A stretch of DNA of 42,383 bases from an uncultured Acidimicrobiales bacterium (GCA_937976305.1 CALJSB010000030.1:1-42383), one strand, 5' to 3'. Positions 3,391-35,924 are shown, numbered from the stretch's first letter. The notes: a model not told the origin generated them from the sequence alone. Translations and numbers: made by a program.

Positions 3391-4284
3391 CTACGTGGTG
3401 GCTTCCCGGAACTCCTGTTGTTGCTGGCGCCGTGCGTCGCCTGCGGCTTTGAGCGCTTCGATGTTCGATTCGTCGACCCGCATGAAGTTCGCTCGCCACT
3501 CATCACTGCCCCAGCGCTGCGGCGCCTGGACAGTGGTGCGGGACGCAAACGCAGCCTCCGTCAACTCGAATGCGAGCTCGAGAACGGATTTCTGCATGGC
3601 GACGTCGTCGGGCTTGCCAATCGGGTTGCCGAGCGGGAAGTCGACGAACAGGAACCGAGGAACGCCGGCTTCCTCGACAATGTCGCGGGCGCTGCCGATG
3701 ACAACGGTCGAGACACCGGAAGCCTCGAGGTGGTGGGCGACCAGACTCACGGTCTGGTGGCAGACGGGTCAAAGCGGAATCAGCAGGACGACATCGACAC
3801 CATCTTCGGCACACCACTCGGCGATCGTGTCGGCATCGAGGCCGGTTCGGCGCTGGCTGTAGTCGGTCGGCACACCAAAGAACCGGTGATTCAAACTACC
3901 GATGCGACCGTTGTCGGCCATCGCTCGCAGATGATCGAGCGGAAGGAACGTGCCGAGGTCGTTGGTGTGGGTGGCATCTTTGTCCCACGAGAGGTCCATG
4001 GTGAACATGCGCTCGGGCTGGGGATCGGTCGGACGGTGGTAGACGACCTTGCGTTTGCCGGCCTCGGGCTCGGCTCCGCCGTCTTCGTGATGGGGGAACG
4101 ACGTGGTCACGACGGCCACGTTTGCCTCAGACAACGGCTTGCTCAGTTTGGTGAGCGGTACTTCGTCGTACGCCGCCCATCGATACGGCTGGCCGTATCC
4201 GTGAGCGGCGTAATACTCGCGCGATTTGTCGATGTAGCTGAGGTACGTGCGGTGGGCTTCTCGGCGCTTGGGCTTTTGTGCCAT
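3391..4284 (-). CDS. Candidate selenoprotein: selenoprotein-B-like (glycine/sarcosine/betaine/D-proline reductase PB family) with in-frame TGA (Sec) at 3769-3771
   Basis: Track ORFs 3769..4284 and 3391..3750 are in the same frame and separated by a single TGA plus 6 sense codons. Read-through gives ...VVLLIPL-U-RSCHQTV-SLVAHH..., i.e. a UxxC motif. A hairpin lies 11-13 nt downstream. Family assignment is from memory only. Confidence 0.55.
3738..3760 (-). other. SECIS-like hairpin downstream of in-frame UGA (mRNA ccagac-cgtga-gtctgg, extendable to about 9 bp)
   Basis: On the minus-strand mRNA the stem begins about 11 nt after UGA. Stem is 6-7 bp with loop CGUGA containing G and U. Confidence 0.45.
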
Positions 4285-4354: not shown

Positions 4355-5704
4355 CTAGGCAGCGAGCTCGAGTGACTCGTCACTCGGTGCCTTGATGGCG
4401 GCGAACCACACGATGAGCAGGCCAACCATGCCGATCGTGGCGGCCGTGATGTTGCCGGCAACCCACAGCTTGATGGATGCCGAGACGATGCCAGCCGCCA
4501 CCATCATCGAGACGGGCCCACCCTTCCAAGCCACTCGGGGAGCCAGGAGTGCACGCTGTTCGAAGCGAGCAACGATGGCCACGATGGCGGCAAGGATCAC
4601 GAGCGAGAGTCCAATGAGCGGCAGCTTCTGCACCCACCAGTCAGCGGTGCCAACAGCAGCGGTCGGCAGGTTGCCGGTGGCGTACATGATCGCACCGGCG
4701 GCCGATGCGGCCGTCATGTGCCAGAGGTAGACAGACATTGCGATGGTGTTCGCTGCGACGACGCCGGCCCAGGCCCTTGGGCTATTGGCGAGCCAGCGAT
4801 TGATGGCTGGCGCAAGAGCAAGTGCGGTGGCTGAGTAGGCGGCACCGAAGAGCATGAGCGCGAGGGTCGGCGGGTTCGCCGGTGAGTGCTCGATTCCAGC
4901 AACGTTCACCATCGTGGTGGGGTAGGGGCCAACAGTGACGGCGGCCAGTGCGGCGACCCAGAGCCCGCCAGCGGTGAGCAGCAGATTGCGGCCGGTCGGC
5001 AAGAGGCCATCTCGCCATGCAAACCCTGCGACCTGGAACAGCAGCCAGCCGAGCACCCAGTTGAGCTGGGGCAGGTAGGGGACGCCGGCGAGGCGAACGA
5101 TCTCGAGCAGACCAAACAGCGCGACTCCGCCACCGGCGACAAGACCGGGGTTGCGGCGAAACGCCGGCAGCACGTAGGGGGCGATGGCGGTATCGATCGT
5201 GTAGTTGGCGAGGAACCACAGCGGAATGGCGGCAGCGACGGCGCCGGCGGCGGCGAGGTGGCCAACACCGGCTGCGCTGGCAATGGCGAGGATGCCGACC
5301 CAGGCGCCGGCGAGGATGACCGTCGGGGCGACCATCCGGCGAAGGCGGGCGACGACCCAGTCTTGCGGGCGACCGTCGTTCTTGGTGTGGGCATCGAGTG
5401 ACATGGCCGAGGAGAAGCCTCCGACCACGAAGAACAGTGGCATCACCTGGAAGAGCCAAGTGATCCACGACATCTGTGGCGCCTGCTCGAGGGCGTTACC
5501 GCCAATGACTTCACCGTCGGCGTTGATGGCAAGGGCAACGGCTGCCCAGTGGCCGAGTGCGACGGCGCACATGGCGACGGCTCGGTAGAAGTCAACCGCA
5601 CGGTTGCGGTCTGACTTGGCTGCAGCAGCCATCTCGGCCAGGTTGGGCCGATTCGTAGAAACCGGCTCGCTTGGCCGGGTGGTGGAGACGAGTGTCGAGG
5701 TCAT
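4355..5704 (-). CDS. acyltransferase family 3 (membrane O-acyltransferase) protein
   Basis: Polytopic membrane protein. N-terminal RAVDFYRAVAMCAVALGHW motif is typical of the acyltransferase_3 family. Alternative start at about 5632. Confidence 0.75.
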   Translation of the reverse strand: MTSTLVSTTRPSEPVSTNRPNLAEMAAAAKSDRNRAVDFYRAVAMCAVALGHWAAVALAINADGEVIGGNALEQAPQMSWITWLFQVMPLFFVVGGFSSAMSLDAHTKNDGRPQDWVVARLRRMVAPTVILAGAWVGILAIASAAGVGHLAAAGAVAAAIPLWFLANYTIDTAIAPYVLPAFRRNPGLVAGGGVALFGLLEIVRLAGVPYLPQLNWVLGWLLFQVAGFAWRDGLLPTGRNLLLTAGGLWVAALAAVTVGPYPTTMVNVAGIEHSPANPPTLALMLFGAAYSATALALAPAINRWLANSPRAWAGVVAANTIAMSVYLWHMTAASAAGAIMYATGNLPTAAVGTADWWVQKLPLIGLSLVILAAIVAIVARFEQRALLAPRVAWKGGPVSMMVAAGIVSASIKLWVAGNITAATIGMVGLLIVWFAAIKAPSDESLELAA

Positions 5705-5805: not shown

Positions 5806-6702
5806 CTAGCCGGCGAGCGAGCTCCAGTCGGCACGATCAACAGCGAGCGGCTGGGGTGAACGCACGACGATGGTCAATGTTTGAGCCGAACCCACCACTT
5901 CGATGCCAGTGATTGGCTGAGCGGGGGCAGGGCTGGCCAGATCTGCACTCCAGAAGAAGGCGAACGTTGACGGAGCGAGATCTCGACCGAGGAGGTTCTC
6001 GACTCGGTTGCCAGCTCCATTGAGGAGCCATGCTTCCCAGTTGACGGTGCTGCCGCCGAGGTTCACTCCGTAGACATCCACGTGACGGTGCTCGGCCGCA
6101 GTAGCAAAGCTTCCCGTGGCGCACGTCCAGACCGTGCCTGCGGGATACCACGAGAAGTAGCCGGCAAGTGGTGGTTCGGTGTTGGTGGTGACGACGTATT
6201 CCTTGCTCTCAGAGAACAACAGCATCACGTTGCCGCGAGAGAACTCGCCGGAATCAAGCCTGCCGACCCAGAACTCGAAGCCGCTTGGCTCGGCGGCACG
6301 GCCGAGAACGTTGCGGTAGACGAGCCGCACGAAGTCGGCGTTCGAGAGTGTTGAGTAGCGAGCGATGAACTCGTCAGAGCTGGCGAAGAAGTTGGACATC
6401 GACACCATGTCCCATTCGCCGGAGGCGAAGCCGTCGACCCAGAAGTCGAAACCAGCCTGGTCAGGGCTGCGGAGGAAGTAGGCCGAATACAGACGGTCGA
6501 TCGAGTCCGTCATTTGCGGACAGGTTGACGAATTCGCAGCCTGGGAAAGCACCGGAAGGGCTTGCGCCGCAGCGTTGTCGGACTGTGCCGCGCTGTCAGA
6601 GAGCGCAGCGTGGTTCGCTGCTGCTGCATCAGCACCACTCGGGTTCGAAAAGCCAAGCAGGCTCAACAGCAATGCACCGACAACAAAGATCCCACGCGCC
6701 AC
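5806..6702 (-). CDS. secreted protein with two DUF4214 repeats
   Basis: N-terminal signal peptide (MARGIFVVGALLLSLLGFSNPSGADA). Repeats RLYSAYFLRSPDQAGFDFWV and LVYRNVLGRAAEPSGFEFWV match DUF4214. A paralog lies at 25033..25884. Confidence 0.75.
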   Translation of the reverse strand: MARGIFVVGALLLSLLGFSNPSGADAAAANHAALSDSAAQSDNAAAQALPVLSQAANSSTCPQMTDSIDRLYSAYFLRSPDQAGFDFWVDGFASGEWDMVSMSNFFASSDEFIARYSTLSNADFVRLVYRNVLGRAAEPSGFEFWVGRLDSGEFSRGNVMLLFSESKEYVVTTNTEPPLAGYFSWYPAGTVWTCATGSFATAAEHRHVDVYGVNLGGSTVNWEAWLLNGAGNRVENLLGRDLAPSTFAFFWSADLASPAPAQPITGIEVVGSAQTLTIVVRSPQPLAVDRADWSSLAG

Positions 6703-9399: not shown

Positions 9400-10607
9400 G
9401 ACTGATCCCTCCGTTTTCCCAAGGGAGTGAGAATCGCAAAGGCCACGACGCCACACCCGAGGGACGACCATAGTGTCGTCGGGTAGCCGGCCTCGTCAAT
9501 GATTGCCCCCATCAGCGGCGGGCCGATCAACCCGCCGACACCGGCTGCGGTGTAGATCAGCCCAAGAACGCCTCCCAGCCCAACGGGTCCGAAGATGTGG
9601 GCTGCGACCGCTGGTGACAGCGCGATGAAACCGCCATAGGCGACGCCGAGCACGACGGCGAACACCACCAGCATTGCGTAGCTATCGCCAGCAGCGAGCC
9701 AGATGGCGAAGCTCAATCCAAGAACGAGCACCGAGGGGCCGTAGAGCGCAGTTGCGCTCGTTCGGGCCGCGATCGCACCCATGCCGAGTCGGCCGAGCAC
9801 GGAGGCAAGGCCGATGACGCCGACGATGAGCCCCGGTGAGCCGCTGATCTCTCGACTGGCCATGTAGTCGTCCATAAACACAAAGGGCACAAACAGGGCG
9901 GTTGAGAGGGCGAGGGTGCTCAGGTACAGAATCCAGAAATCGCGCGATTTCGTGAGGTTGCCGAGGGACGGCATCTCGGCTGCGCCGCCCTGTGACCCCG
10001 GTGGACGATGAGCCCCGATCGCGGCGAGGCAGAGCAGCACGGCGCTGGCGATTCCGAAGATGACATAGGTGTCGCGCCAGCCGTAGTTGTCAACGAGTCG
10101 CTCAGCAGTTGGAGCCACAACGAGGGTGCCGACGCCGATGCCGGCGACGGCGATTCCAAGCGCTGTCGTGCGCCGTTCTTCGAACCAGCCGCCGACCGTG
10201 GCAACCATCGGCACATATGCACATGCAACTCCGATGCCAACCCCGACGCCGTAGGTGAGGTAGCCGGCCCAGAGGGTCTCGACCTGTGACGTGAGCACCA
10301 AGCCGATTGACATCGCTGCAGCGCCGGCAAGCAGCACGGGCCGGGGGCCGATCCGGTCGGCGATACGCCCGGTGCCGACACCCAGAAGGAAATACAGGAA
10401 CGTCGTGATCGAAAAGAAGAGTGCCGTGGTGCTTCGCTCTGATCCGAATTCGTCGGCCATCGGCCGGAAGAAAGCGCCAAAGCTGTAGGCGACGCCGAAG
10501 ACGGTGAACGTGGACAAGAACGTGGCAGCAACGACCTGCCAGCCCCGCGCCGACTCCACGCCATCGGCGGCCGCAGCCGCCGGCGCCTCGACCGTCTGCG
10601 ACTTCAC
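9396..10607 (-). CDS. MFS transporter (oxalate/formate antiporter-like)
   Basis: 12-TM profile and MFS motifs (GRIADRIGPRP, G-rich loops). Confidence 0.85.
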   Translation of the reverse strand: MKSQTVEAPAAAAADGVESARGWQVVAATFLSTFTVFGVAYSFGAFFRPMADEFGSERSTTALFFSITTFLYFLLGVGTGRIADRIGPRPVLLAGAAAMSIGLVLTSQVETLWAGYLTYGVGVGIGVACAYVPMVATVGGWFEERRTTALGIAVAGIGVGTLVVAPTAERLVDNYGWRDTYVIFGIASAVLLCLAAIGAHRPPGSQGGAAEMPSLGNLTKSRDFWILYLSTLALSTALFVPFVFMDDYMASREISGSPGLIVGVIGLASVLGRLGMGAIAARTSATALYGPSVLVLGLSFAIWLAAGDSYAMLVVFAVVLGVAYGGFIALSPAVAAHIFGPVGLGGVLGLIYTAAGVGGLIGPPLMGAIIDEAGYPTTLWSSLGCGVVAFAILTPLGKRRDQS

Positions 10608-10649
10608 GCGGTGTTGTCCGATGGGTCGCGGCCGGTCAATGAATCGTCG

Positions 10650-11792
10650 TCAGCCAATGGATCGTGCCCATTGCCGAATGTCGTCGACGAACATGTCTGG
10701 CTGCTCAAACGCCGCAAAGTGTCCGCCGCGATCCTGTTCGTTCCAGTACGTGATGTTCGTGTAGTTCGGCTCCATCCAATGTCGCACCGGCGTGACGATC
10801 TCCTTGGGGTGCACCGTGACACCAGTTGGGATCGTCACTGGCTCTCGTTTGATCGACCCGAAGCTCTCCCAGTAGATGCGAGCGGATGAAGCGCCGGTTC
10901 CCGTGGCCCAATACAGCATCAGATTGTCGATCAGTTCGTGCCGGTCGAGCACGTTCTCGGGGTGACCGTCGCAGTCAGTCCAGGCCCAAAACTTCTCGAG
11001 CACCCACGCCGCGAGCCCGGCGGGCGAGTCCACCAAGCTGTAGCCGACGGTTTGAGGACGCGTGCGCTGCTGTGTGGAGTAGCCAGAGTCCCACTGTTGG
11101 TAGAAGGTGGCGCCAGCGATGGCGCGCTGCTCCTCTTCGGTTGGCTCGCCGTCGATGGCTGGACTGGTGCCCATGGCCAACGTGATATGGATGCCGTCGC
11201 AATGGTCAGGGTCTTGCCACCCGATCGAGGTGGTCACCGCTGATCCCCAGTCACCGCCCTGAGCGAGGTAGTGGTCATAGCCCAGGCGAGCCATCAGTTC
11301 TTTCCACGTCAGCGCGATCTTCTCGACGCCCCAGCCGGTGGTTGTGGGTTTGCCTGAGAATCCGAAGCCGGGCAACGAGGGGCAGATCACATGGAAGGCA
11401 TCGTCGGCCGAGCCGCCGTGGGTGGTTGGGTCAGCCAGCGGCTCAATGATCTTGTGAAACTCCACGATCGATCCGGGCCAACCGTGTGTGATGAGCAGCG
11501 GTGTTGCGTTCTCATGAGGTGAGCGCTGGTGGACGAAGTGGATGTCGACACCGTCGATCTCGGTCACGAAATGATCGAAGCGATTCAGAGCAGCTTCGCG
11601 AGCCCGCCAGTCGTAGTCGTTTGCCCAGGTGTTGCACACGTCCTTGAGCCAGGCGAGCGGCGTGCCCTGGCTCCAGTCGTCAACCAGTTCGGCCTCTGGC
11701 CAGCGGGTCGCCTGGAGGCGGGCTTTGAGATCGGTGAGAATCTCGTCGCTGACAGCAATCTCGAACGATCGAATATCGGTGGATGACCCCAT
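10650..11792 (-). CDS. epoxide hydrolase (N-terminal EH domain plus alpha/beta hydrolase)
   Basis: HGWPGS oxyanion-hole motif, Asp nucleophile in GGDWGS, and a length (380 aa) typical of microsomal-type epoxide hydrolases. Confidence 0.85.
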   Translation of the reverse strand: MGSSTDIRSFEIAVSDEILTDLKARLQATRWPEAELVDDWSQGTPLAWLKDVCNTWANDYDWRAREAALNRFDHFVTEIDGVDIHFVHQRSPHENATPLLITHGWPGSIVEFHKIIEPLADPTTHGGSADDAFHVICPSLPGFGFSGKPTTTGWGVEKIALTWKELMARLGYDHYLAQGGDWGSAVTTSIGWQDPDHCDGIHITLAMGTSPAIDGEPTEEEQRAIAGATFYQQWDSGYSTQQRTRPQTVGYSLVDSPAGLAAWVLEKFWAWTDCDGHPENVLDRHELIDNLMLYWATGTGASSARIYWESFGSIKREPVTIPTGVTVHPKEIVTPVRHWMEPNYTNITYWNEQDRGGHFAAFEQPDMFVDDIRQWARSIG

Positions 11793-23182: not shown

Positions 23183-23650
23183 ATGCGAATCCGCCCGAAA
23201 CTCTCCGGCGCCCCACTGGCGTACACCTTGGCCCAGGTCGAGGGAACCGACGTCTACAGCGATTTTGGCAAGGCGCTCTGGCGCGACGAGGGCGCTGTCC
23301 CGGCCGCCGTGAAGGAACTCGTCTTTCTCCGCACCTCCATCGTCAACCAGTGCCCCACGTGAATTGATGGCCATGTTGTCTCGGCGAGACAACGAGGAAT
23401 CACCGACGACCAGCTCGGTGCGTTGGAAGAGAGAGATCAGTGGACTTCGGTCTTTGATGATCGAACTCACGTCGCCCTCGAGTTGGCTGACGCGATGTGC
23501 GGACCCACGAGTGAGCTGTCGGCCGAGCTCATCGCTGAGCTGCGGTATCACTACGAAGAGGCCGAGATCGCTGAGCTCGTCTTGGTGTGCGGACAGGCGA
23601 ACTTGAACAACCGGGTCGGCAACGCAGCGAAGCAGCTACTCGGCGAGTAG
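23183..23650 (+). CDS. Candidate selenoprotein: AhpD-like / carboxymuconolactone decarboxylase family protein with in-frame TGA (Sec) at 23360-23362 forming CxxU-xxx-H
   Basis: Track ORFs 23120..23362 and 23423..23650 share a frame. Read-through gives LVFLRTSIVNQCPT-U-IDGHVVSARQRGITDDQLGAL..., which aligns with the CMD/AhpD core LxxLRxSxxNGCxYCxxxHxxxARxxGE. The TGA sits at the second catalytic Cys. The C-terminal part also matches (ALELADAM ... EAEIAELVLVCGQANLNNRVGNA). Confidence 0.7.
23375..23393 (+). other. SECIS-like hairpin gttgtctc-ggc-gagacaac, 12 nt downstream of the in-frame UGA
   Basis: Perfect 8-bp stem, or 6 bp with a 7-nt loop UCGGCGA. Spacing matches the bacterial SelB-binding geometry. 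Confidence 0.5.
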
Positions 23651-23677: not shown

Positions 23678-24889
23678 CTAGTTCCGGGGTAGTTCCTTGA
23701 ACGGCGTCTCTTTTGCTGGGCCAGGTTCACGGGGAAGACCGAGCGCTCGTTCGCCGAGTGTGTTGCGCTGAATCTCATCCGTGCCGCCGCCGAGACTCAT
23801 GCCTCGGCAGTTGAGGATGTGATAGGCGAAGTAGTCCTCGTCGATTGCTCGCGGTGAGCCGTCGTCAGACCACGCCGGCGATGCCGGGAAGGCGAGTCGG
23901 GCCGCAGTGTCGGCGGCTGCCCGGCCCTGAATGGTCCGCCACAGCTTCCCGATCGACGGATGGACCCCTGTTTTCTTCAGGTAGCCCATGATCGTTTCGC
24001 CGGTGTAGAGCCGGGCCAGCTCTTGCCGGGTCACGGGGTCGTCGAGCTGGTTGCGATCGCGCGCCAATTCGATGAGTTGATCGACCGGTATCGGGACTCG
24101 GCCGGCCTTGGATCGCTGCCCGCTCGAGCCCCCAACGGAAGCGACACCGGTTTGGACTCGCTCGTGCGCGAGCAGCGCGACGGCAGTGCGCCAACCGCCG
24201 TTGACGTCGCCAACAACCCATGTCTTTGGGATGCGGGCCTCGTCGATGAACACTTCGTTGAATTCGGCCTCGCCCGTCATCTGGACAAGGGGACGAACCG
24301 TGACGCCGTCTTGCTCGACAGGGAGCACAAACATCGTGACACCACGATGTTTCGGTGCATCGAAGTCGGTTCGGGCCAACAAGATGGCGTACTGACTGTG
24401 CTGGGCTCCCGAGGTCCATACCTTCTGGCCCGTCACCACCCACTCGTCACCGTCGAGGTCGGCACGGGTGGCAAGCCCAGCAAGGTCCGAGCCGGCGCCA
24501 GGCTCGGAATACATCTGGCACCAGATGTCGTCGCCTCGCAGGCCGGGGCGCAAAAAGCGATCCTTGAGTTCGTCAGAGCCGAAGTCTCGGATCGTCGGCA
24601 TCGCCATACCCACGCCGATCCCGAAGACACTGTCTTCCCTCGGGACGAGTCCACGGCTCTCTTCGTTGTAGGCGGCTGCATATTCGGGACCGAGGCCTTG
24701 GCCGCCGTAGTCGGTCGGATAGTCGAGCCCAGTGAGTCCGGCGTCGTAGAGGGCAGCCCGCCACACCTTCGCCCGGTTGAGTTGGCCCACAACACCATCG
24801 AGCACAGTTGGTAGTTCGTTGTCGAAGAACGACCGAACGGCGAGGCGGAATTCGTCGACAGAGGGCGCGTTTTCGGTCACGGCGCACAT
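23678..24889 (-). CDS. acyl-CoA dehydrogenase family protein
   Basis: Three-domain ACAD architecture with a conserved middle beta-domain (WCQMYSEPGAGSDLAGL) and C-terminal catalytic region. Confidence 0.88.
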   Translation of the reverse strand: MCAVTENAPSVDEFRLAVRSFFDNELPTVLDGVVGQLNRAKVWRAALYDAGLTGLDYPTDYGGQGLGPEYAAAYNEESRGLVPREDSVFGIGVGMAMPTIRDFGSDELKDRFLRPGLRGDDIWCQMYSEPGAGSDLAGLATRADLDGDEWVVTGQKVWTSGAQHSQYAILLARTDFDAPKHRGVTMFVLPVEQDGVTVRPLVQMTGEAEFNEVFIDEARIPKTWVVGDVNGGWRTAVALLAHERVQTGVASVGGSSGQRSKAGRVPIPVDQLIELARDRNQLDDPVTRQELARLYTGETIMGYLKKTGVHPSIGKLWRTIQGRAAADTAARLAFPASPAWSDDGSPRAIDEDYFAYHILNCRGMSLGGGTDEIQRNTLGERALGLPREPGPAKETPFKELPRN

Positions 24890-25032
24890 TATCCCGGCGG
24901 GTTCAGCGAGCGAAAAGTCGCTCGGTCAAGGTGAGCCTGGTGGTGATGCAAAACATGCCCCATGGTCTCCTAGCGCGCCTCGTTGTACTCTTGCGCTTGC
25001 GCTCGACGGAGCGGAGGGAAAAGGTGAGGTTC

Positions 25033-25884
25033 ATGATTCGTCCACTGAAGCTGATCGCTGCGGCACTCTTGGCTGCGCTGATGGCGGCAACCTCGTTGGT
25101 CGCACCAACGCCGGCTTCTGCCGAGGGGCAGACACTGCCGCTTTCTGAATGCCCGTGGTTGACCGACCCGGTCGTCCGTCTCTACAGCGCCTATTTCCTA
25201 CGGGCTCCCGATCCGGGGGGTTTTGAGTTCTGGGTGGGGCGCGTCGACGAAGGTCAAAGTCTCGACGACATCTCGGACTTCTTCTCACAGGGCGAGGAGT
25301 TCGAGACCTTGTACGGCGACAAGACCAACGCCGAGTTTGTGGAGCTGATCTACCAGAACGTGCTCGAGCGTGCACCCGACCAAGGCGGCTTCGACTTCTG
25401 GTCAGGCCAACTCGATCAGGGTTTGATGACCCGTGGCCGCGTGATGCGGAACTTCTCCGAGAGTCCCGAGTTCGTCACCAAGACCGACACCAACCTGCCG
25501 CCCGCTGGCTTCTTCTCGACCTTCCCGTCCGGCACCGAATTCACCTGCGGCCGAGGTGGTGTCGTTGTCCCGTACGTTCAGTCACCGTCTTCGTGGTTTG
25601 TCTTGTTTGCGCCCCCCGGTGACGGCAGCGTGTGGCGGACCTTTGTCCACCCGATCGCGTCAAACGGTGAGTTCCTCGGTGATCCATCTCCGAGCCTCCA
25701 GGAAAACGACATCGATGCCTTCCGTTTGCACATCGGGTTCATGCCGGTGCGTGGCAACTTCTTGCAGGTCGGGCTGGCCGAAGACGATCTGCAGCTCTGG
25801 TCTGTCGTCGAGGTCGAGGGCAAGTTCGCATGCGATGCCCTCACCGACACCTGGGCCAACAACCCCTGCGGCATCAACCCGTAG
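25033..25884 (+). CDS. secreted protein with DUF4214 repeats (paralog of 5806..6702)
   Basis: AAGGTGAGG RBS, then ATG at 25033. Signal peptide MIRPLKLIAAALLAALMAATSLVAPTPASAEG. Repeats RLYSAYFLRAPDPGGFEFWV and LIYQNVLERAPDQGGFDFWS. Confidence 0.8.
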   Translation: MIRPLKLIAAALLAALMAATSLVAPTPASAEGQTLPLSECPWLTDPVVRLYSAYFLRAPDPGGFEFWVGRVDEGQSLDDISDFFSQGEEFETLYGDKTNAEFVELIYQNVLERAPDQGGFDFWSGQLDQGLMTRGRVMRNFSESPEFVTKTDTNLPPAGFFSTFPSGTEFTCGRGGVVVPYVQSPSSWFVLFAPPGDGSVWRTFVHPIASNGEFLGDPSPSLQENDIDAFRLHIGFMPVRGNFLQVGLAEDDLQLWSVVEVEGKFACDALTDTWANNPCGINP

Positions 25885-28454: not shown

Positions 28455-30371
28455 ATGTCCGGTGTTCTAGCCTTCGTAGTCGGCCTTGTGGTGATCGTTC
28501 TGGTCATCATTTTGCTGGTCGCGTTCGTCATTTCTCAGCTGTACCGCAAGGTGCCGCAGGGCAAGGCGCTCGTTGTCAGCACGACCCGCAACGTCGTTGT
28601 GTCGTTCACTGGTCGGACTGTTGTTCCGATCTTTCACAAAGCCGAGATCATGGACATCTCGGTCAAGACCATCGAGATTGACCGCCGCGGTACGGAGGGC
28701 CTGATCTGTCAGGACAACATCCGCGCCGACATCAAGGTCAACTTCTTCGTCCGAGTCAACAAGGCCGAGGAAGACGTCATCAAGGTCGCGCAGGCCATCG
28801 GCTGCGAGCGTGCCTCTGACCCGGTCACGCTCGAAGAGCTTTTTGCTGCGAAGTTCTCTGAAGCGTTGAAGACCGTCGGTAAGGCCATGGACTTCGTCTC
28901 GCTGTACACCGAGCGAGCATCGTTCCGCGATCGCATCATCGAAGTGATCGGCACCGACCTCAACGGCTACGCCCTCGAAGACGTTGCGATCGACTACCTC
29001 GAGCAAACGCCGCTCGAGCAACTCGACACCAACAACATTCTCGATGCCCAGGGCATCCGCAAGATCACCGAGCTCACCGCCGTCGAGCACGTCGCCACCA
29101 ACAACGCGGCGAACGACGAAGCCAAGATGATCACGGCAAAGAACGTCGAGACCCGTGAGGCCGTGCTTGAGCTCGAGCGCCAGCAGGCCGACGCCGAGGC
29201 CCGTCAACGTCGTGAGGTCGAGGCCGTGCGCGCTCGTGAGCAGGCAACGATTGACACGATCAAGGCCGAGGAGAAGCTGCGGGCCGAGATGGCCAATCTC
29301 GAGACCGACCAGAAGCTCGGCATCGAACAAGAGAACCTTCAGCGAGAGGTCGAGGTCGCCGGGAAGAACCGCGAGCGAGTGCTTGCCGTTGAGGCCGAGC
29401 GCGTTCGCAAGGCAGCCGAGCTCGAGGACATGAGCCGTCGCGTTGAGACACTCGCCGCCGAAAAGGCGCTCGAAGAAGAGAAGAGCACGATTGCCGACAT
29501 TCGCCGCAACCGAGTGGCTGTCGACAAGACCGTGGCTGAACAAGAAGAAGCCATCGCCACACTGCGAGTTGTCGAAGAGGCAAACCGTCAGCGCGACGCC
29601 GTTGTGATCGAGGCGGAGGCCATCGCCCAGGGTGATCTCGTCAAGGACATCAAGGCAGCCGAAGCAGCCGAGACGGCAGCAACGCATGAGGCAAAGCGTC
29701 AGCTCACGCTGGCTCAGGCCACGATGGAGTCGTCTGATCTCGAGGCCAGGGCCAAGATCCGTATGGCTGAAGGTGTGAAGGCTGAGGAGGCGGCACAAGG
29801 TCTCGCCGAAGTCGACGTGATGACCGCCCGGGCCGACGCTGAAGAGAAGCTCGGCATGGCCGAAGTCAATGTCGATCTGGCCAAGGCCGGCATCATCCGC
29901 GAGCAGGGTACAGCCGAGGCCGAGGCCGTCGAGGCCAAGCTCAAGGGCGAAGCAGCGGGTCTCCACGACAAGGCTGCCGCCATGAAGGAACTCGAAGGAG
30001 TCGGCCAGGAGCACGAGGAGTTCATCCGCAACCTCGAAGCTGAGACCAAGGTCCGCCTGGCCCAAGTCGATGCCAACGTTGGTGTGGCCACGGTGCAGGC
30101 CGAAGCCATGAAGTCCGGCCTCGAGAGTGCCGACATCGACATCGTCGGTGGTTCGGACATCTTTGTCGATCGGATCATCGGGGCCATTGGCCATGGCAAG
30201 GCAGTCGACGGGTTCGTCGAGAACTCCGAGCTCGCAACAACGGCCCTGGCTCCGTACGCCAGCGGTGACGAAGACCTCGTCGCCAAGATTGCCGAAGCCA
30301 TTTCCGGCCTTGGAGCCGACGGCATCCGCGATCTCTCCGTCGCCGACCTGCTTCGTCAGATCGGCAAGTAG
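28455..30371 (+). CDS. flotillin-family SPFH/band-7 protein (YqiK/FloT-like)
   Basis: N-terminal TM, an SPFH domain (QGKALVVSTTRNVVVSF ... ISVKTIEIDRR ... IRADIKVNFFVRV), and a very long E/A/K/R-rich coiled-coil flotillin region. Confidence 0.88.
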   Translation: MSGVLAFVVGLVVIVLVIILLVAFVISQLYRKVPQGKALVVSTTRNVVVSFTGRTVVPIFHKAEIMDISVKTIEIDRRGTEGLICQDNIRADIKVNFFVRVNKAEEDVIKVAQAIGCERASDPVTLEELFAAKFSEALKTVGKAMDFVSLYTERASFRDRIIEVIGTDLNGYALEDVAIDYLEQTPLEQLDTNNILDAQGIRKITELTAVEHVATNNAANDEAKMITAKNVETREAVLELERQQADAEARQRREVEAVRAREQATIDTIKAEEKLRAEMANLETDQKLGIEQENLQREVEVAGKNRERVLAVEAERVRKAAELEDMSRRVETLAAEKALEEEKSTIADIRRNRVAVDKTVAEQEEAIATLRVVEEANRQRDAVVIEAEAIAQGDLVKDIKAAEAAETAATHEAKRQLTLAQATMESSDLEARAKIRMAEGVKAEEAAQGLAEVDVMTARADAEEKLGMAEVNVDLAKAGIIREQGTAEAEAVEAKLKGEAAGLHDKAAAMKELEGVGQEHEEFIRNLEAETKVRLAQVDANVGVATVQAEAMKSGLESADIDIVGGSDIFVDRIIGAIGHGKAVDGFVENSELATTALAPYASGDEDLVAKIAEAISGLGADGIRDLSVADLLRQIGK

Positions 30372-30374
30372 CCG

Positions 30375-33300
30375 GTGAGCGACGCCTCTTCGGAAGCATC
30401 GGCTGATCCGCCGGGTGGCGGAGACGTCGGTGCCCCTGGCGAAGAACCTGCTGCCTCCAGCGGTGAGGCTGGCCAAGGCCAGATCGCACAGGGAACCTAT
30501 GAGCTCCTCCGCGGTCGACTCTCGACTGCGGCCAGCGAGTTGGTCAAGCGCGCCAATGCCCTGAACGACGAGCGGCTCGGTGTCTTTGGATCGTCCAAGC
30601 TCGAGTTGGTTGCCACTGAACGGGTGAGGACCGAGTCAAACGCCGTCCCTCGCGATGTCGTGTCGGTCGGCGATCAGTTGGTGCTGGCCTACAACGTGGC
30701 GGCGGGCATCAAGGCCGAGACGCGATCTGAAGACGTCTTCGCGGTGCATCACCTCGAGTTGGGTGATGGCCCAACCGACATCACGTTCAGCCCCAATCCT
30801 GAGGGCCTGGTCGGCTCTGTCCTGGCTGATGATCAGTTTCATCGTGACTTCGACGAGCTCTACACCTATTTCAAGGAGGCCAACCTTCAGCAGCTGTATC
30901 GCACCGCGCAACGAATGCTTGCGGTGTTCCGTACCGGCGGTGGGGCCAACGACGTTCGAGTGCTGCGGTGGCAGATCGAAAACGACGGGTCGCTCCGCTA
31001 CCTCGACGCCCGCGGCGAGCGAGATCACCGCTTTCCCGCCAACCAAGATGTTGAGTGGACCCTCACGACACGGGCCGAACACGTCGGTGGCCGCCACATC
31101 GAGATCGGCGACCGCATCATGGTCAACCCGCTCGGCGGCTCGCTCGACATCCGCCTCGACGACGGCGGCGAAGGCACCCTCCTTCTGAGCGACCGTCTCG
31201 AGCACGCCGACCAATCGCTCGCCGATTGTCAGATCAGCTGGGCCAAGGCCGGCGATCTTCGCCTCATCGACGTGTTGCCCTACGGCGAAACCCAGCACCG
31301 GTACTACATCGTCAACATGCTGGTGCACTCCGCCGTGCGGATGGATGCCCTTGGTGAGGCGTTCCGCCAGCTGCCAGACAATCAGGGCATCATCTTTCCC
31401 GACGGCGTCTATCTGAAGACGGGAGAGGTGCGCACGTTCGACCTCGCGGTCGACGAGATGGAACTGCTTGAGGTCGTGCGCTCGCCCAACGGCGAGGACG
31501 TCATGTATGTGTTCCACGAACGGATGGGTGGCCGCTCGATCCTGCTGCCCTACAACGTCGTGCGCCAAGAGGTCGCGGCGCCCATCTGGTGTCATGGTCA
31601 CTCACTCTTCGACGACGGCACGATGGTTGTGTTTCGAGAAGAGCCAGAGCCAACGACGATTCACCCACTGCAGATCTGGGTGACGCCATTTTCGAGCGAC
31701 GAGTGGTACGCCGCCCAACCTCGTGAGGCTACGAAGTTCGATCGCATTGGTAACGCCTCGTTGGTCAACGGCATCGCTGATGCGCTGGCCCTCGGCCGAC
31801 TGGTATCTGAAGTCGAGCCATCCACCGCCGTCTACGCCGACGTTCTGGCGTCCACCGGGCGGTTCATCGACGCTCACCATTGGGCAGCCGACGACGCAGT
31901 TGGCAACTTGGCCGAGCCGGCCAACGACATTCGCCTTGTTGCCGAGCAAGTCATCGACGAGTTCGAGCGGCTGCAAGAGGTGCAGGCCTCAGCTGCGGCG
32001 ACCTTGGCCGAAGCAAGCGAAGAAACCGAGCGGACCCTCGAGGATCTCCGCCTCAGCCCACCGAAGACCACCGAGGGATACATCGACGGTTTGGCCGACA
32101 TTCGCCGCCGCATCGGTCACCTGCACACCATTCGCGAACAGCGCGAGATTGATCTGGTTCGCGTTGACGAACTCATTGGTTCGGCCGAGACGGCCTACAA
32201 CGATCTGGCCCAATCTGCTGCCGCCCACCTCTCGACTGACAACGCGTTCGTTCCCTATCACGAGCGGTTGACAGAGATCTCCAACCAGACACCAAACCTT
32301 CTCTCGTCGCTCGAAGCAACTGAGCTGATGGACGAGGTCGACGCCGTCGCCGAATCCATGGATCTCGTCGCCGGCACCGTCGGCGACTTGGTCGTCGAAG
32401 ACCCGCGAGTCCGAACCTCCGTGCTCGAACAGGTCTCCGGCGTGCTGGCCGAGCTGAACCGTGTCCGGGCCGGGGCGGAAGGCAAGCGCGAAGAACTCGT
32501 GCAGTCAGAAACGGGTGCGGCCTTTGCCACTGAGCTCGGCTTGTTCGGCCAGTCGATTGCCGCCGCGGTCGGACGGGCCGACACGCCCGAAGCGTGCGAC
32601 GAAGCCCTCGCTCGCCTGCTCCTCCAGCTCGAGCAACTCGAAACCGCAGGCCCTCGGACCGAGGCGCAGCTCGACGAGTTGAACCAACGACGCGATCAGG
32701 TCACCGAAGCGCTTTCAGGTCGCCGGCAGCAACTGGTCGACGAACGCCAGCAGCGAGCCGAACGTTTGGTGTCCGCAGCCGACCGCACGCTCGTGCGCGT
32801 GGGGGAGCGAGCGCAAACGCTCGACTCTGTCGACGATGTCAACGGCTTCTATGCCGCCGACCCCATGGTCGCCCGCGTTCGCAAGCTGGTCGACGATCTT
32901 CGTGAGCTTGGCGAGCCTGTTCGAGCCGACGAGCTGCAGTCGAAGTTGGGGGCATCTCGCGACAATGCAGCCCGAGCGCTGCGAGATCGCCAAGATCTCT
33001 TTGATGGCGAAGCGGTCAAGCTCGGCCGTCATCGCTTCAGCGTCGATGACCGTGCCCGCGAACTCACCATCGTCCCGAGCGGCGAGCAACTCAACGCGGT
33101 GCTCACGGGTACTGATTTGCGCCTCCCCGTCACCGGCCCAGGACTCGACAACCTCAAAGAACTGTGGGATCAGCCACTGTCGTCAGAAAGCCCCGAGCTC
33201 TACCGATCGGCCTTCCTGGCCGGTGATCTGCTGCTCGACACGCTGCACGGCGGTGCCGACCCCGAACGAGACGAAGCCATCAGAACTGCGCTTCGCAACG

Positions 33301-35924
33301 AGGATGCCGATGCGATCCTCCGAATCGTGCGGGCCGAGGTCGACAACCGCCTCGACGAGGGATACGACCGAGGTGTCCACGACCTCGACGCAGCCCGCAT
33401 TCTCGAGGGCTTCGGAGCCGTCGCTCACGTGGCAGACACCCTGACGGCAACGAGCTCGACCAGAGCGGCCGCCCAGATTGCGTGGGCCCACCGCTTCTCT
33501 GACCACCAGCGTGATCGCTGGACCGACCGAGGACGGGCTGGAGCCACGCTGGGCCTCGACAAGGCCACCGTCGCCGAGCTCACTGAGGAACTGGCCGCTG
33601 ACTTGGCCCGGACCTCTGACGCTGAAGCTGAGGTGGCGATCGCTGATCGTCTGGTCGCCCGCTACCTGATGGCCGAGTTGCTGAACCCCGATGGTTTGGC
33701 GTTTGCCCAGACGCGGGCCGCATCGGAGCTCACCGACCGGTTCGCATCGTCGCCAGATGTGCGGGCCCTCGTCGACGGAATGGACGACGATCTCGGCGGT
33801 GTCACGACGGTGCTTGCCGACTACGTGAGCCGCGAAGTGCGCGACGTCGAGAGCCATCTGATCGATGAGATCGTCGCCGCACTTGTCACTCCTGATCTTC
33901 CCCGTCGCATTGTCGATGTCGAGCTCGCCGTGTCGGTCGACGGACTGATCGGCCGTCACGTCACGTTCGAAGCTGGCACGCTCGCTGATCGAGTCGATGG
34001 CCTACTCGAAACAGTCGACCGCCATCGGCTGGCAACGCTCCCTGCTCACCGAGCGTTTGCGGCGGCTCGTCGCGAAGCGCTCGATGATGTGAAAGACACC
34101 CTGCGTGTCGACGAGCTCGAGCCTCGGGTGCCCGAGGGCTTTGTTCGTAACCAACTGATCGACCAGGTGTATCTGCCGCTCATCGGCGACAACTTGTCCC
34201 GCCAGATCGGCACCGTTGACGATCGCACGGGCGCCCGATCTGGCCTGTTGATGTTGCTGTCGCCCCCGGGCTACGGCAAGACCCTGCTTGTTGAATACCT
34301 CGCCGATCGCCTCGGCATGGCCTTGGTCAAGGTGTCTGGCCCAGGTTTGGGTCACGACGTCACGTCGCTCGACCCCGGCCAGGCGCCGAGCGCGACTGCA
34401 GCCCGCGAGATCGAACGCATCAACTTGTCATTCGCCGTTGGCACCAACGTGATCCTCTACCTCGACGACATTCAGCACACCAACGCTGAGTTTCTCCAAC
34501 GGTTCATTGCCCTCTGTGATGCGCAACGGCGAGTCGAGGGTGTGTGGAACGGTGAGTCGACCTCGTTCGACCTGCGAGGCAAACGCTTCGCCGTCGTCAT
34601 GGCCGGCAACCCCTACACCGAGTCGGGTGAGCGGTTCCGCGTGCCGGACATGCTGGCCAACCGAGCCGACACCTACAACCTCGGTGACGTGCTCGAAGGC
34701 AACGCTGATCTGTTCGCCAAGAGCTATCTCGAGAACGCCCTCAGCTCGAACCCGGTGCTGGCGCCACTTGTCGGCACCGACCCTGGCGATCTCGAACGCT
34801 TCTTCCGTGCCGCCGACGGCGAGCCGCTCGACGAGTCGTCGCTCAAGCAGAGCTACTCGTCCGCTGAAGCCAACGAGATCGTCTCGGTGTTGCGTCACCT
34901 GCGCCAGGTGCAAGAGGTCGTTCTCACGGTGAACCGTCAGTACATCGCTTCTGCCGCCAGTGCAGATGCCTATCGGACCGAACCGCCGTTCCTCCTGCAG
35001 GGCTCGTACCGAAACATGGCGCGGATGGCATCCAAGCTGCTGCCCGCGATGACCGCCGAAGAGGTCGATCGGATCATCGATGAGCACTACACCGCAGAAT
35101 CGCAAGCGCTCACGGGTGCCGCGGAATCAAACCTGCTGAAGCTTGCTGAGATGCGGGGAACGATGACGGACGAGCAGCGAGCTCGCTGGGACGACATCTT
35201 GTCGACCTTCCGTCGTCAGCAGCGAATGGGTGGCGACGAGCGAGATCCAGCCACGCGGGTGGTTGCGGCCATCGAAAACGTGGCTGAGGCGCTCGGCAAT
35301 CCGGCATTGGCCGCCGCCAGTGCTCCAGCCCCGCCGCCTGAGCCCGAGCAGGTCGAGAAAGCAGAGCCAGTAGATCCGCCGCCTCCACCACAGATCGTGA
35401 TGCCGCCGATCGAGATGCCTCCCGTGGTGATTCCACCAATCGAGGTCAACGTCAACGCGCCTGAAACCGGAACTGACCCGGCCGCGGCTGCGGCGATGAT
35501 CTCCGCCATCGAGCGAGTGGCTGATGCTCTCAGCATGCAGGAGCCGCTTGCGGCCCGAGCCATCGACCTGCTCGCGTCTGAAGCGTCGAAGCGACGTGGG
35601 GGCGCCCGCGCTGCGAGCGTCGGGCCGTCTGTGCCCCCTCGACCGCCGGTGCCTCGGCCGCAGTCGTCAACCAGAGATCCGATTCGAGCGGCATCAGAGG
35701 CGCAGCCACCGTCGCAGAAGGCGGTAGCCAAACGGGCGGCTGCAAAGAAGCCGACCAAGGCCGCAGGCCATCGCATTGCTGCGAATCGTCGGGCCTCGGC
35801 GCCGCCGCAGCCGCCGCAGCAGTTCCGTCGGGACCACAAGCCAATGTCGCCAAAGCCTCCGGCACCGCCGGGGAGTGGGAAGCCTCCTCAAAAGCCGAAG
35901 GCGAAGAAGCCTCCGGCTGAGTAG
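30375..35924 (+). CDS. giant (1849 aa) protein of unknown function with an AAA_5 (MoxR/McrB/dynein-like) ATPase module near residues 1180-1340 and a Pro/Lys-rich C-terminal tail
   Basis: GTG start 3 nt after the flotillin stop. Walker A LLSPPGYGKT, Walker B ILYLDDIQ, and sensor/Arg-finger-like MAGNPYTESGERFRVPDMLANRAD. About 1150 aa of N-terminal sequence that I cannot assign. Tail contains PPPPPQIVMPPIEMPPVVIPPIEV and KPPAPPGSGKPPQKPKAKKPPAE. Confidence 0.85.
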   Translation: MSDASSEASADPPGGGDVGAPGEEPAASSGEAGQGQIAQGTYELLRGRLSTAASELVKRANALNDERLGVFGSSKLELVATERVRTESNAVPRDVVSVGDQLVLAYNVAAGIKAETRSEDVFAVHHLELGDGPTDITFSPNPEGLVGSVLADDQFHRDFDELYTYFKEANLQQLYRTAQRMLAVFRTGGGANDVRVLRWQIENDGSLRYLDARGERDHRFPANQDVEWTLTTRAEHVGGRHIEIGDRIMVNPLGGSLDIRLDDGGEGTLLLSDRLEHADQSLADCQISWAKAGDLRLIDVLPYGETQHRYYIVNMLVHSAVRMDALGEAFRQLPDNQGIIFPDGVYLKTGEVRTFDLAVDEMELLEVVRSPNGEDVMYVFHERMGGRSILLPYNVVRQEVAAPIWCHGHSLFDDGTMVVFREEPEPTTIHPLQIWVTPFSSDEWYAAQPREATKFDRIGNASLVNGIADALALGRLVSEVEPSTAVYADVLASTGRFIDAHHWAADDAVGNLAEPANDIRLVAEQVIDEFERLQEVQASAAATLAEASEETERTLEDLRLSPPKTTEGYIDGLADIRRRIGHLHTIREQREIDLVRVDELIGSAETAYNDLAQSAAAHLSTDNAFVPYHERLTEISNQTPNLLSSLEATELMDEVDAVAESMDLVAGTVGDLVVEDPRVRTSVLEQVSGVLAELNRVRAGAEGKREELVQSETGAAFATELGLFGQSIAAAVGRADTPEACDEALARLLLQLEQLETAGPRTEAQLDELNQRRDQVTEALSGRRQQLVDERQQRAERLVSAADRTLVRVGERAQTLDSVDDVNGFYAADPMVARVRKLVDDLRELGEPVRADELQSKLGASRDNAARALRDRQDLFDGEAVKLGRHRFSVDDRARELTIVPSGEQLNAVLTGTDLRLPVTGPGLDNLKELWDQPLSSESPELYRSAFLAGDLLLDTLHGGADPERDEAIRTALRNEDADAILRIVRAEVDNRLDEGYDRGVHDLDAARILEGFGAVAHVADTLTATSSTRAAAQIAWAHRFSDHQRDRWTDRGRAGATLGLDKATVAELTEELAADLARTSDAEAEVAIADRLVARYLMAELLNPDGLAFAQTRAASELTDRFASSPDVRALVDGMDDDLGGVTTVLADYVSREVRDVESHLIDEIVAALVTPDLPRRIVDVELAVSVDGLIGRHVTFEAGTLADRVDGLLETVDRHRLATLPAHRAFAAARREALDDVKDTLRVDELEPRVPEGFVRNQLIDQVYLPLIGDNLSRQIGTVDDRTGARSGLLMLLSPPGYGKTLLVEYLADRLGMALVKVSGPGLGHDVTSLDPGQAPSATAAREIERINLSFAVGTNVILYLDDIQHTNAEFLQRFIALCDAQRRVEGVWNGESTSFDLRGKRFAVVMAGNPYTESGERFRVPDMLANRADTYNLGDVLEGNADLFAKSYLENALSSNPVLAPLVGTDPGDLERFFRAADGEPLDESSLKQSYSSAEANEIVSVLRHLRQVQEVVLTVNRQYIASAASADAYRTEPPFLLQGSYRNMARMASKLLPAMTAEEVDRIIDEHYTAESQALTGAAESNLLKLAEMRGTMTDEQRARWDDILSTFRRQQRMGGDERDPATRVVAAIENVAEALGNPALAAASAPAPPPEPEQVEKAEPVDPPPPPQIVMPPIEMPPVVIPPIEVNVNAPETGTDPAAAAAMISAIERVADALSMQEPLAARAIDLLASEASKRRGGARAASVGPSVPPRPPVPRPQSSTRDPIRAASEAQPPSQKAVAKRAAAKKPTKAAGHRIAANRRASAPPQPPQQFRRDHKPMSPKPPAPPGSGKPPQKPKAKKPPAE

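Follow-up and report, generated by a model that had tools for sequence, protein, structure and literature searches.

A gene split at an in-frame TGA in an uncultured Acidimicrobiales bacterium very probably encodes a PrdB-like selenoprotein with a conserved SECIS-like hairpin

Two adjacent minus-strand open reading frames (ORFs) in a contig of an uncultured Acidimicrobiales bacterium (GCA_937976305.1 CALJSB010000030.1:1-42383) raise the question of whether the TGA codon between them ends a gene or specifies selenocysteine (Sec) within a longer one. The stretch of DNA analysed, referred to below as the window, is 42,383 nt long, and the ORFs in question occupy its positions 3391 to 4284. An initial annotation made from the sequence alone had proposed that they form a single gene for a selenoprotein B-like protein, with a UxxC redox motif and a hairpin resembling a bacterial Sec insertion sequence (SECIS). 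The analysis reported here supports, with high confidence, the view that 4284..3391 encodes a 297-residue selenoprotein belonging to a 'PrdB-like' clade, with predicted hairpin-directed insertion of Sec at UGA-172.

The frame that runs from 4284 to 3391 comprises 171 codons up to the TGA (3771..3769), followed by a further 125 codons up to a TAG. The translation bears out the initial observation that the ORFs at 3769..4284 and 3391..3750 share this frame, with one TGA and six sense codons (CCC GTC TGC CAC CAG ACC) between them. Read-through yields the peptide ...DVVLLIPL-U-PVCHQTVSLVAHHLE..., in which the UxxC motif of the initial annotation is present, while the two residues it had placed within that motif ('U-R-S-C') are incorrect, the actual order being U-P-V-C-HQT. 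Both ORF halves exhibit a coding-type GC content at third codon positions (0.75 and 0.79, in a window of 63% GC), and the GTG 'start' of the second ORF (3750..3748) is a Val codon within the loop of the hairpin described below. A reassigned genetic code was considered and ruled out, since TGA terminates 10 of the 23 confident genes in the window. Public collections store the gene as a pair of unnamed ORFs (171 and 119 aa), and all public copies found had been split at the TGA by gene callers. The locus 4284..3391 is one gene that gene callers divide in two at its UGA codon.

The occupancy of the TGA position in related sequences is central to the proposed Sec assignment. A protein homology search covering 5.8 billion proteins returned 1637 homologues, the four closest of which (74-92% identity) are only 171-185 aa long, indicating that gene calling had cut them off at this codon. 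Full-length homologues (~295 aa, range 291-311; 46-57% identity), derived from Acidimicrobiia, Bradyrhizobium and others, are single proteins that are colinear with the read-through product from M1 to the C-terminus, and alignment of 19 of these showed the TGA column to correspond to the first Cys of an invariant CPVCHQ motif. The TGA was retained in all five independent contigs of close relatives, and the conserved protein continued for ~125 codons past it in four, these being the contigs of sufficient length.

Furthermore, a scan of GTDB with one genome per species, from which the 80 best loci were taken, revealed a TGA followed by P-V/I-C-H-Q/M in all 80. The labels of these loci cover Acidimicrobiales/Ilumatobacter, Dehalococcoidia and other Chloroflexota, Syntrophaceae/Smithella/Thermodesulfobacteriota, SAR324, Myxococcota, a spirochaete and some proteobacteria. 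When only Cys forms were used to seed a metagenome scan, the TGA was again recovered in 77 of 80 loci, and Cys in three. Altogether, 163 of 166 scorable related loci, with metagenome-assembled genome (MAG) labels of several phyla, carry TGA at the Sec column, and the remaining three carry Cys. The frame is open and conserved downstream of the TGA in all ~90 loci whose translation was inspected, including the P-V-C-H-Q-T codons and the C-terminal half of the protein. The initial proposal implied a conserved Cys/Sec column at this position, and such a column was indeed found, with Cys in full-length homologues, TGA at the DNA level and an open frame wherever inspected. As judged from these alignments, the pattern is the classic Sec/Cys signature, and the predicted Sec form of the PrdB-like gene is widespread.

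Among the carriers is a cultured organism, Ilumatobacter nonamiensis YM16-303, whose predicted Sec region reads ...LLVPL-U-PVCHQTVSLVAR (locus L027). Two loci, L011 and L014, are labelled as bins of 'Candidatus Azotimanducaceae' and 'Gammaproteobacteria'; over the 30 residues of the motif region, both match Ilumatobacter loci exactly, and the two groups share an identity of ~64% to the query. Both loci are possibly mis-binned, and phylum counts for the PrdB-like family accordingly need care.

The hairpin of the initial annotation, a 7-9 bp stem about 11 nt downstream of the TGA, was reproduced at that place by RNAfold as a stem of 7 bp with two additional outer pairs, the main stem starting 11 nt past the A of the UGA (Table 1). 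Its sequence is unusual with respect to codon choice, as local codon usage gives the succession CAC CAG ACC GTG AGT CTG a joint probability of about 0.0013. In particular, Ser is encoded by AGT in 97% of Sec loci, while AGT accounts for only 5.7% of the Ser codons in the window. Codon entropy was calculated across 152 distinct Sec loci, using for each codon only those sequences that encode the majority amino acid. Codons +4 to +9 (His, Gln, Thr, Val, Ser and Leu) displayed entropies of 0.44, 0.14, 0.15, 0.35, 0.22 and 0.56 bits, respectively, compared with 1.57, 1.67, 2.33 and 1.61 bits for like amino acids elsewhere in the same loci (Thr+21, Val+22, Ser+26 and Leu+14, respectively). The flanks (-5 to +3 and +10 to +14) ranged from 0.9 to 2.4 bits. 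The synonymous freeze thus coincides exactly with the hairpin codons, and recent transfer cannot account for it, given the free variation of the flanks in these very sequences. The hairpin is therefore not only present where it had been predicted, but also conserved at synonymous sites across relatives.

Base pairing was assessed in an alignment of 143 distinct sequences (A3) for nine proposed pairs, with controls in which the 3' partners were slid by one to three columns. Standard pairs were observed in 93.5% of cells, compared with 20-34% in the slid controls; both-sided changes occurred at four pairs (17 cells), and the observed covariation score was not attained in any of 500 shuffles. Examples of compensatory stems are CCAAAC/GUUUGG (L006 and L163) and CCAGUC/GACUGG (L039), and even an amino-acid change was seen to track the stem, CAC being replaced by CAU where its partner GUC is replaced by AUC. 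The canonical inner stem is kept in 127 of the 143 sequences, lost in 14 and interrupted by a single mismatch in two. All 14 sequences without it have instead a 6-bp hairpin that lies 6 nt further downstream and has GUC or GUU as its 3-nt loop, as exemplified by CCGUGA-GUC-UCACGG and CCGUCA-GUC-UGACGG (L046, L052, L064, L070, L086, L104, L113, L139 and L151 are among the sequences concerned). In 11 of the 14, the shifted hairpin goes along with the replacement of Val by Thr (SLT for SLV), and what is seen here looks like SECIS turnover within one family. The apical loop is CGUGA in 129 of the 143 sequences, and its G and U (3750 and 3749; columns G25 and T26 of A3) are invariant in all 143. 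These sequence comparisons demonstrate RNA-level selection on the predicted hairpin in the 35 nt past UGA-172.

Cys-form DNA was available as a control from three lineages (L089-91; the Bradyrhizobium loci L169-172; L173-174). In all three, the rare AGT is replaced by AGC or TCG, and both the inner stem and the 5-nt loop are lost.

A structural model of the protein obtained with AlphaFold2 showed an alpha/beta fold (mean predicted local distance difference test score 85.4, predicted template modelling score 0.86). In the model, strand 165-169 is followed by a loop that contains U172, and C175 belongs to the first turn of helix 174-188, an arrangement typical of redox-active UxxC or CxxC centres. 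On the basis of the known bacterial Sec pathway, it would be expected that at UGA-172 the SelB-GTP-Sec-tRNA(Sec) complex docks on the apical part of the hairpin, for which the conserved G-U in the 5-nt loop and the position of the stem 11 nt past the UGA would be the relevant features, and that the docked complex brings about insertion of Sec in place of termination. By analogy with PrdB and GrdB, Sec172 and Cys175 would constitute a selenol/thiol redox pair, in which the selenolate may attack the substrate and Cys175 may resolve the adduct, generating an Se-S bond that a dithiol donor would then re-reduce.

Profile searches, performed with Cys in place of the stop in the read-through protein, were consistent with the selenoprotein B-type resemblance suggested initially, as TIGR04483, TIGR01918 and PF07355 all produced matches. 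The best match in NCBIfam was TIGR04483 (PrdB; E 6.7e-24), whose 84.6 bits do not reach the equivalog cut-off of 300. This match is without gaps overall and pairs residues 44-242 with profile positions 20-218, i.e. 199 residues including the Sec column; by the match offset, U172 falls near profile position 148, and the Sec of PrdB is U151. TIGR01918 (selenoprotein B) was matched at profile positions 207-419 only, with E 1.3e-8 and 34.3 bits, below its cut-off of 65.45, and the GrdF, GrdH and TIGR01918 models gave 31-38 bits, each below its own cut-off. The Pfam family PF07355 (GRDB) was passed marginally (23.2 bits versus a gathering threshold of 22, residues 32-168 only). As the scores are under the NCBIfam trusted cut-offs, membership holds at superfamily level only: the predicted protein is a member of the PrdB/GrdB superfamily and is nearer to PrdB than to GrdB, while its identity as a D-proline reductase is not established by these profile matches.

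The family itself has been catalogued previously. Under the name 'Proline reductase PrdB', with a UxxC motif, it ranked third in abundance among the selenoprotein families of the Sargasso Sea, where it comprised 42 genes (Zhang, Fomenko and Gladyshev 2005, PMC1088965), and the Global Ocean Sampling (GOS) data contained 235 Sec genes versus 110 Cys homologues of this family (Zhang and Gladyshev 2008, PMC2398784). One member listed in the 2005 supplement, AACY01093821, reads ...LVPLuPVCHQTVGLVARHLESNGIPTVIAGSARDIIEQCGVPRFLFTDFPLGNP... (PMC1088965). The window protein exhibits 55% identity to it over 175 residues (E 4e-73), with Sec aligned, and therefore belongs to this known family. Common to the window protein and the Sargasso Sea/GOS family are the segments L-U-PVCHQTV-(S/G)-LVA(R/H)HLE, GSARDI and PRFLF-DFPLGNP, in addition to the UxxC motif, a PF07355-level match, the occurrence of Sec/Cys pairs and a small-loop SECIS-like hairpin with G. 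No essential difference separates the two; the window copy is from Acidimicrobiales and has His at +12, where Arg is mostly found elsewhere. The catalogues named the family after its nearest characterised homologue and showed neither D-proline reductase activity nor a PrdA partner (PMC1088965, PMC2398784).

Compared with PrdB of Clostridia (C. sticklandii and C. difficile, Sec151), the window protein is homologous over ~200 residues and has a UxxC motif with Sec, and the chemistry would be alike; however, it is longer by ~45 residues N-terminally and ~55 residues C-terminally, and no prdA, prdC or prdH-type neighbours were present in any of 80 loci. Canonical PrdB requires pyruvoyl-PrdA, with which it assembles into a (PrdA/PrdB)10 complex, and its Sec attacks the alpha-carbon of D-proline held on the PrdA pyruvoyl group (PMC11229817). 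GrdB, GrdF and GrdH belong to the same superfamily and, like the window protein, have Sec as the first residue of the redox motif. The GrdB motif has been described as UxxCxxC (PMC13188914), whereas that of the window protein is UxxC (U-P-V-C-H-Q-T); moreover, the 297-aa window protein matches no more than the C-terminal half (205-422) of the ~430-aa GrdB profile, and grdA, grdE and grdC are not nearby. With no UxxCxxC, half a profile and a score below the TIGR01918 cut-off, the predicted protein is not a GrdB. Canonical PrdB and GrdB alike depend on a pyruvoyl subunit whose gene lies alongside their own. The candidate SECIS resembles the E. coli fdhF type in being an in-ORF hairpin just 3' of the UGA, with the upper stem 11 nt on and a G-U in the loop, and in being conserved beyond coding needs. 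Conversely, it has no evident bulged U and its loop is CGUGA rather than GGUC, while SelB binding is predicted. The 11-nt distance conforms to the rule for the spacing between UGA and hairpin that was established by work on E. coli fdhF.

An alternative that accepts the selenoprotein but not its separate standing holds that it is a genuine PrdB of a Stickland-type D-proline reductase, with the pyruvoyl PrdA encoded elsewhere in the genome. The colinear TIGR04483 match and the catalogues' own family name would fit such an assignment, although the shortfall from the equivalog cut-off does not, and no gene for a PrdA/GrdE-type pyruvoyl subunit was identified among the window ORFs scanned. The clostridial prdA and prdB genes share one cluster. 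De novo clustering of ORFs within 4.5 kb on either side found no accompanying family in more than 10 of the 80 loci, and a Pfam scan of 110 flanking ORFs found no family in more than six, with no Gly_reductase/PrdA among the top families. Carriers of the gene also include generally aerobic lineages, such as Ilumatobacter and, for the Cys form, Bradyrhizobium. A trans-3-hydroxy-L-proline-dehydratase-like gene of the proline racemase family, located directly upstream in four Ilumatobacteraceae loci (L018, 8842..9963; L031, 8896..9963; L062 and L024), hints at proline-type substrates and speaks for a true PrdB; it is not found in the window. The encoded proteins have a Cys/Thr-type DRSPTGTG motif and score 507-526 bits versus a cut-off of 550, and in L018 (10988..11761) and L031 an alpha/beta hydrolase gene lies downstream of the PrdB-like gene. 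This racemase-family neighbour is a lineage-specific hint at proline-derivative metabolism. On this evidence, the true-PrdB assignment is unlikely.

It is tentatively proposed instead, as a possibility to which we attach some but not predominant weight, that the stand-alone ~295-aa PrdB-like clade represents an autonomous selenoenzyme, widespread in aerobic and anaerobic bacteria, which uses its UxxC on another substrate, without a PrdA/GrdE partner. Given the dehydratase-like neighbour in Ilumatobacteraceae, the substrate of such an enzyme might still be a proline-derived imino acid.

Several observations weigh against the assignment of 4284..3391 as a selenoprotein gene with a SECIS-like hairpin and a PrdB-like redox function. 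The minimum free energy of the hairpin region (-16.7 kcal/mol for 60 nt) is not significant relative to dinucleotide shuffles (z -0.41; the z value of a 131-nt fold was -1.65), and 27% of 3000 synonymous recodings drawn from the codon usage of the window fold at least as stably. The window alone consequently does not establish a SECIS, and support for the predicted element is comparative rather than single-sequence thermodynamic. Searches against Rfam yielded no SECIS family, either at the gathering threshold for the whole window or at E<=10 for 3600..3900, where the sole match was at chance level on the other strand. Covariation is modest owing to the near-invariance of the element, and relatedness among the sequences inflates the shuffle statistics. 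The Cys-form control is small, at three lineages, and these Cys forms still fold the outer CACCAG/CUGGUG stem (as an 8-bp stem, GUCACCAG/CUGGUGGC, in the Bradyrhizobium loci L169-L172 and in L090-L091), as the codons for His-Gln are the reverse complement of those for Leu-Val; the peptide thus prescribes part of the stem. At the protein level, the score is far under the PrdB equivalog cut-off, no solved structure was found to be specifically similar to the window protein, and its presumed redox chemistry is drawn purely from analogy. Finally, the window contains no tRNA, no tRNA-Sec was detected in 60 related loci, and selA, selB and selD had no family match among the ~38 window ORFs scanned.

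With regard to this machinery, E. coli SelA, SelB and SelD sequences were compared by tblastn with 1.7 Mb of related DNA, which returned one SelD and two weak matches to the SelB GTPase domain. The selD gene (10460..11512, plus strand) is in a deltaproteobacterial MAG (L074), 7 kb from a Sec-form PrdB-like gene; its product exhibits 42% identity to the E. coli SelD query and is itself Sec-containing (…SRTAG-U-AAKIG…). A literature search for Sec machinery in Ilumatobacter gave no relevant result, and complete Sec machinery has been reported for Actinomarinales, another order of the class Acidimicrobiia (2026 preprint). Together with the L074 SelD and the second TGA-interrupted candidate of the window (Table 1), that report lends no more than indirect support to Sec machinery in the source genome.

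Some of the above points could be taken to mean that UGA-172 is read through while the hairpin is a mere by-product of the peptide HQTVSLV, with another signal or a non-Sec residue being involved. The outer stem of Cys forms with the same peptide, the many synonymous recodings as stable as the window hairpin and the missing Rfam match are all compatible with this. Nevertheless, synonymous sites are frozen in Sec forms only and across the hairpin only, and Cys forms abandon the rare AGT together with the inner stem. Stem partners change in concert, both through compensatory double changes and through residue changes (CAU with AUC), and the 14 sequences that lost the canonical stem gained the shifted hairpin; the residue paired with U172 is, moreover, Cys, the classic partner of Sec. 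A by-product hairpin is accordingly rated as very improbable. The outer stem of the Cys forms is either a fossil SECIS of a Sec ancestor or a coding coincidence that possibly pre-adapts the site for Sec; it weakens any argument drawn from the presence of a hairpin, not that from synonymous freezing in the Sec forms. A true stop, in a pseudogene or between two genes of 171 and 119 aa, can be virtually dismissed, for although every public copy found is called as split and TGA is a normal stop in the source genome, the identical TGA recurs in 163 loci of several phyla by MAG label, the P-V-C-H-Q-T motif and C-terminal half are conserved beyond it in all ~90 inspected loci, the Cys-form homologues are single proteins of 291-311 aa and the supposed GTG start is a Val codon in the hairpin loop.

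Table 1. Coordinates of the predicted PrdB-like selenoprotein gene, its proposed recoding elements and two further features of the window
Feature	Position	Strand	Basis
PrdB/GrdB-superfamily selenoprotein gene (predicted), complete, stand-alone 'PrdB-like' clade	3391..4284	minus	translation and family matches
Start ATG and stop TAG of this gene; 297 codons including UGA-172	4284..4282 (ATG); 3393..3391 (TAG)	minus	translation
In-frame UGA, proposed selenocysteine codon 172	3769..3771	minus	Cys column in homologues and conservation of TGA
Putative U-P-V-C redox motif (U172, C175)	3760..3771	minus	translation and alignment of homologues
SECIS-like hairpin GC-C-ACCAGAC-CGUGA-GUCUGGU-C-GC	3737..3761	minus	minimum free energy fold (RNAfold) and comparative pairing
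Inner 7-bp stem	A3758-C3752 / G3746-U3740	minus	minimum free energy fold
Outer 2 bp, beyond C/C mismatch	3761..3760 / 3738..3737	minus	minimum free energy fold
Apical loop CGUGA	3747..3751	minus	loop census and invariant columns
449-aa multi-pass membrane protein, directly upstream	4355..5704	minus	no Pfam/NCBIfam match
AhpD/CMD-like TGA-interrupted gene (candidate), motif C-P-T-U	23183..23650; TGA 23360..23362	plus	weak profile matches

The initial annotation had pointed to two TGA-interrupted candidates within 20 kb, and this was confirmed, as an AhpD/CMD-like gene lies 19.6 kb from the PrdB-like gene (Table 1). Its N-terminal fragment alone scored 19.5 bits against PF02627 and 18.6 bits against TIGR00778, both under the cut-off. 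A 9-bp hairpin with a GGC loop is predicted 15 nt past its UGA (dG -22.3, z -1.95). AhpD-like CxxU selenoproteins constitute a family in the Sargasso Sea and GOS catalogues (PMC1088965, PMC2398784).

The neighbours of the PrdB-like gene in the window encode the 449-aa membrane protein, a GAF protein, a TrmA-like methyltransferase, Rpe, ClpP and pyruvate kinase, and are syntenic in close relatives only. The membrane protein gene is conserved beside the PrdB-like gene in no relatives other than the closest Acidimicrobiales (64-85% identity). In the lineage of one Cys-form homologue (P0117), a gene for an 83-aa glutaredoxin starts 2 nt downstream (L173, 3374..3625; L174, 5790..6041), and this glutaredoxin is a possible reductant partner.

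Two further observations concern other parts of the window. ORFs of 638 aa (28455..30371) and 1849 aa (30375..35924), both on the plus strand, are in the same frame and separated by a TAG and one codon. The former had no match in Pfam or NCBIfam, and the latter none in NCBIfam, the sole library against which it was scanned. They may represent one giant TAG-interrupted gene or two tightly coupled genes. In addition, paralogous DUF4214-containing proteins are encoded at 5806..6702 (minus strand) and 24781..25884 (plus strand), each scoring about 90 bits against PF13946.

Neither the gene itself nor its Sec codon or family assignment is new, and in this respect the locus is an ordinary find of modest practical value. 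As every public copy found was mis-called, the window illustrates that the annotation of MAGs continues to miss selenoprotein genes. The near-invariant SECIS consensus obtained from the comparison of 160 loci, CAC CAG ACC GUG AGU CUG GU, could serve for the automatic annotation of this family. The remaining interest lies in the function of the stand-alone PrdB-like clade and in this near-invariant SECIS, neither of which is specific to the window. The cultured carrier I. nonamiensis YM16-303 makes the role of a PrdB-like selenoprotein without an adjoining prdA testable. If the clade does represent an autonomous enzyme, one of the most abundant marine selenoprotein families would have been misnamed 'proline reductase' for 20 years.

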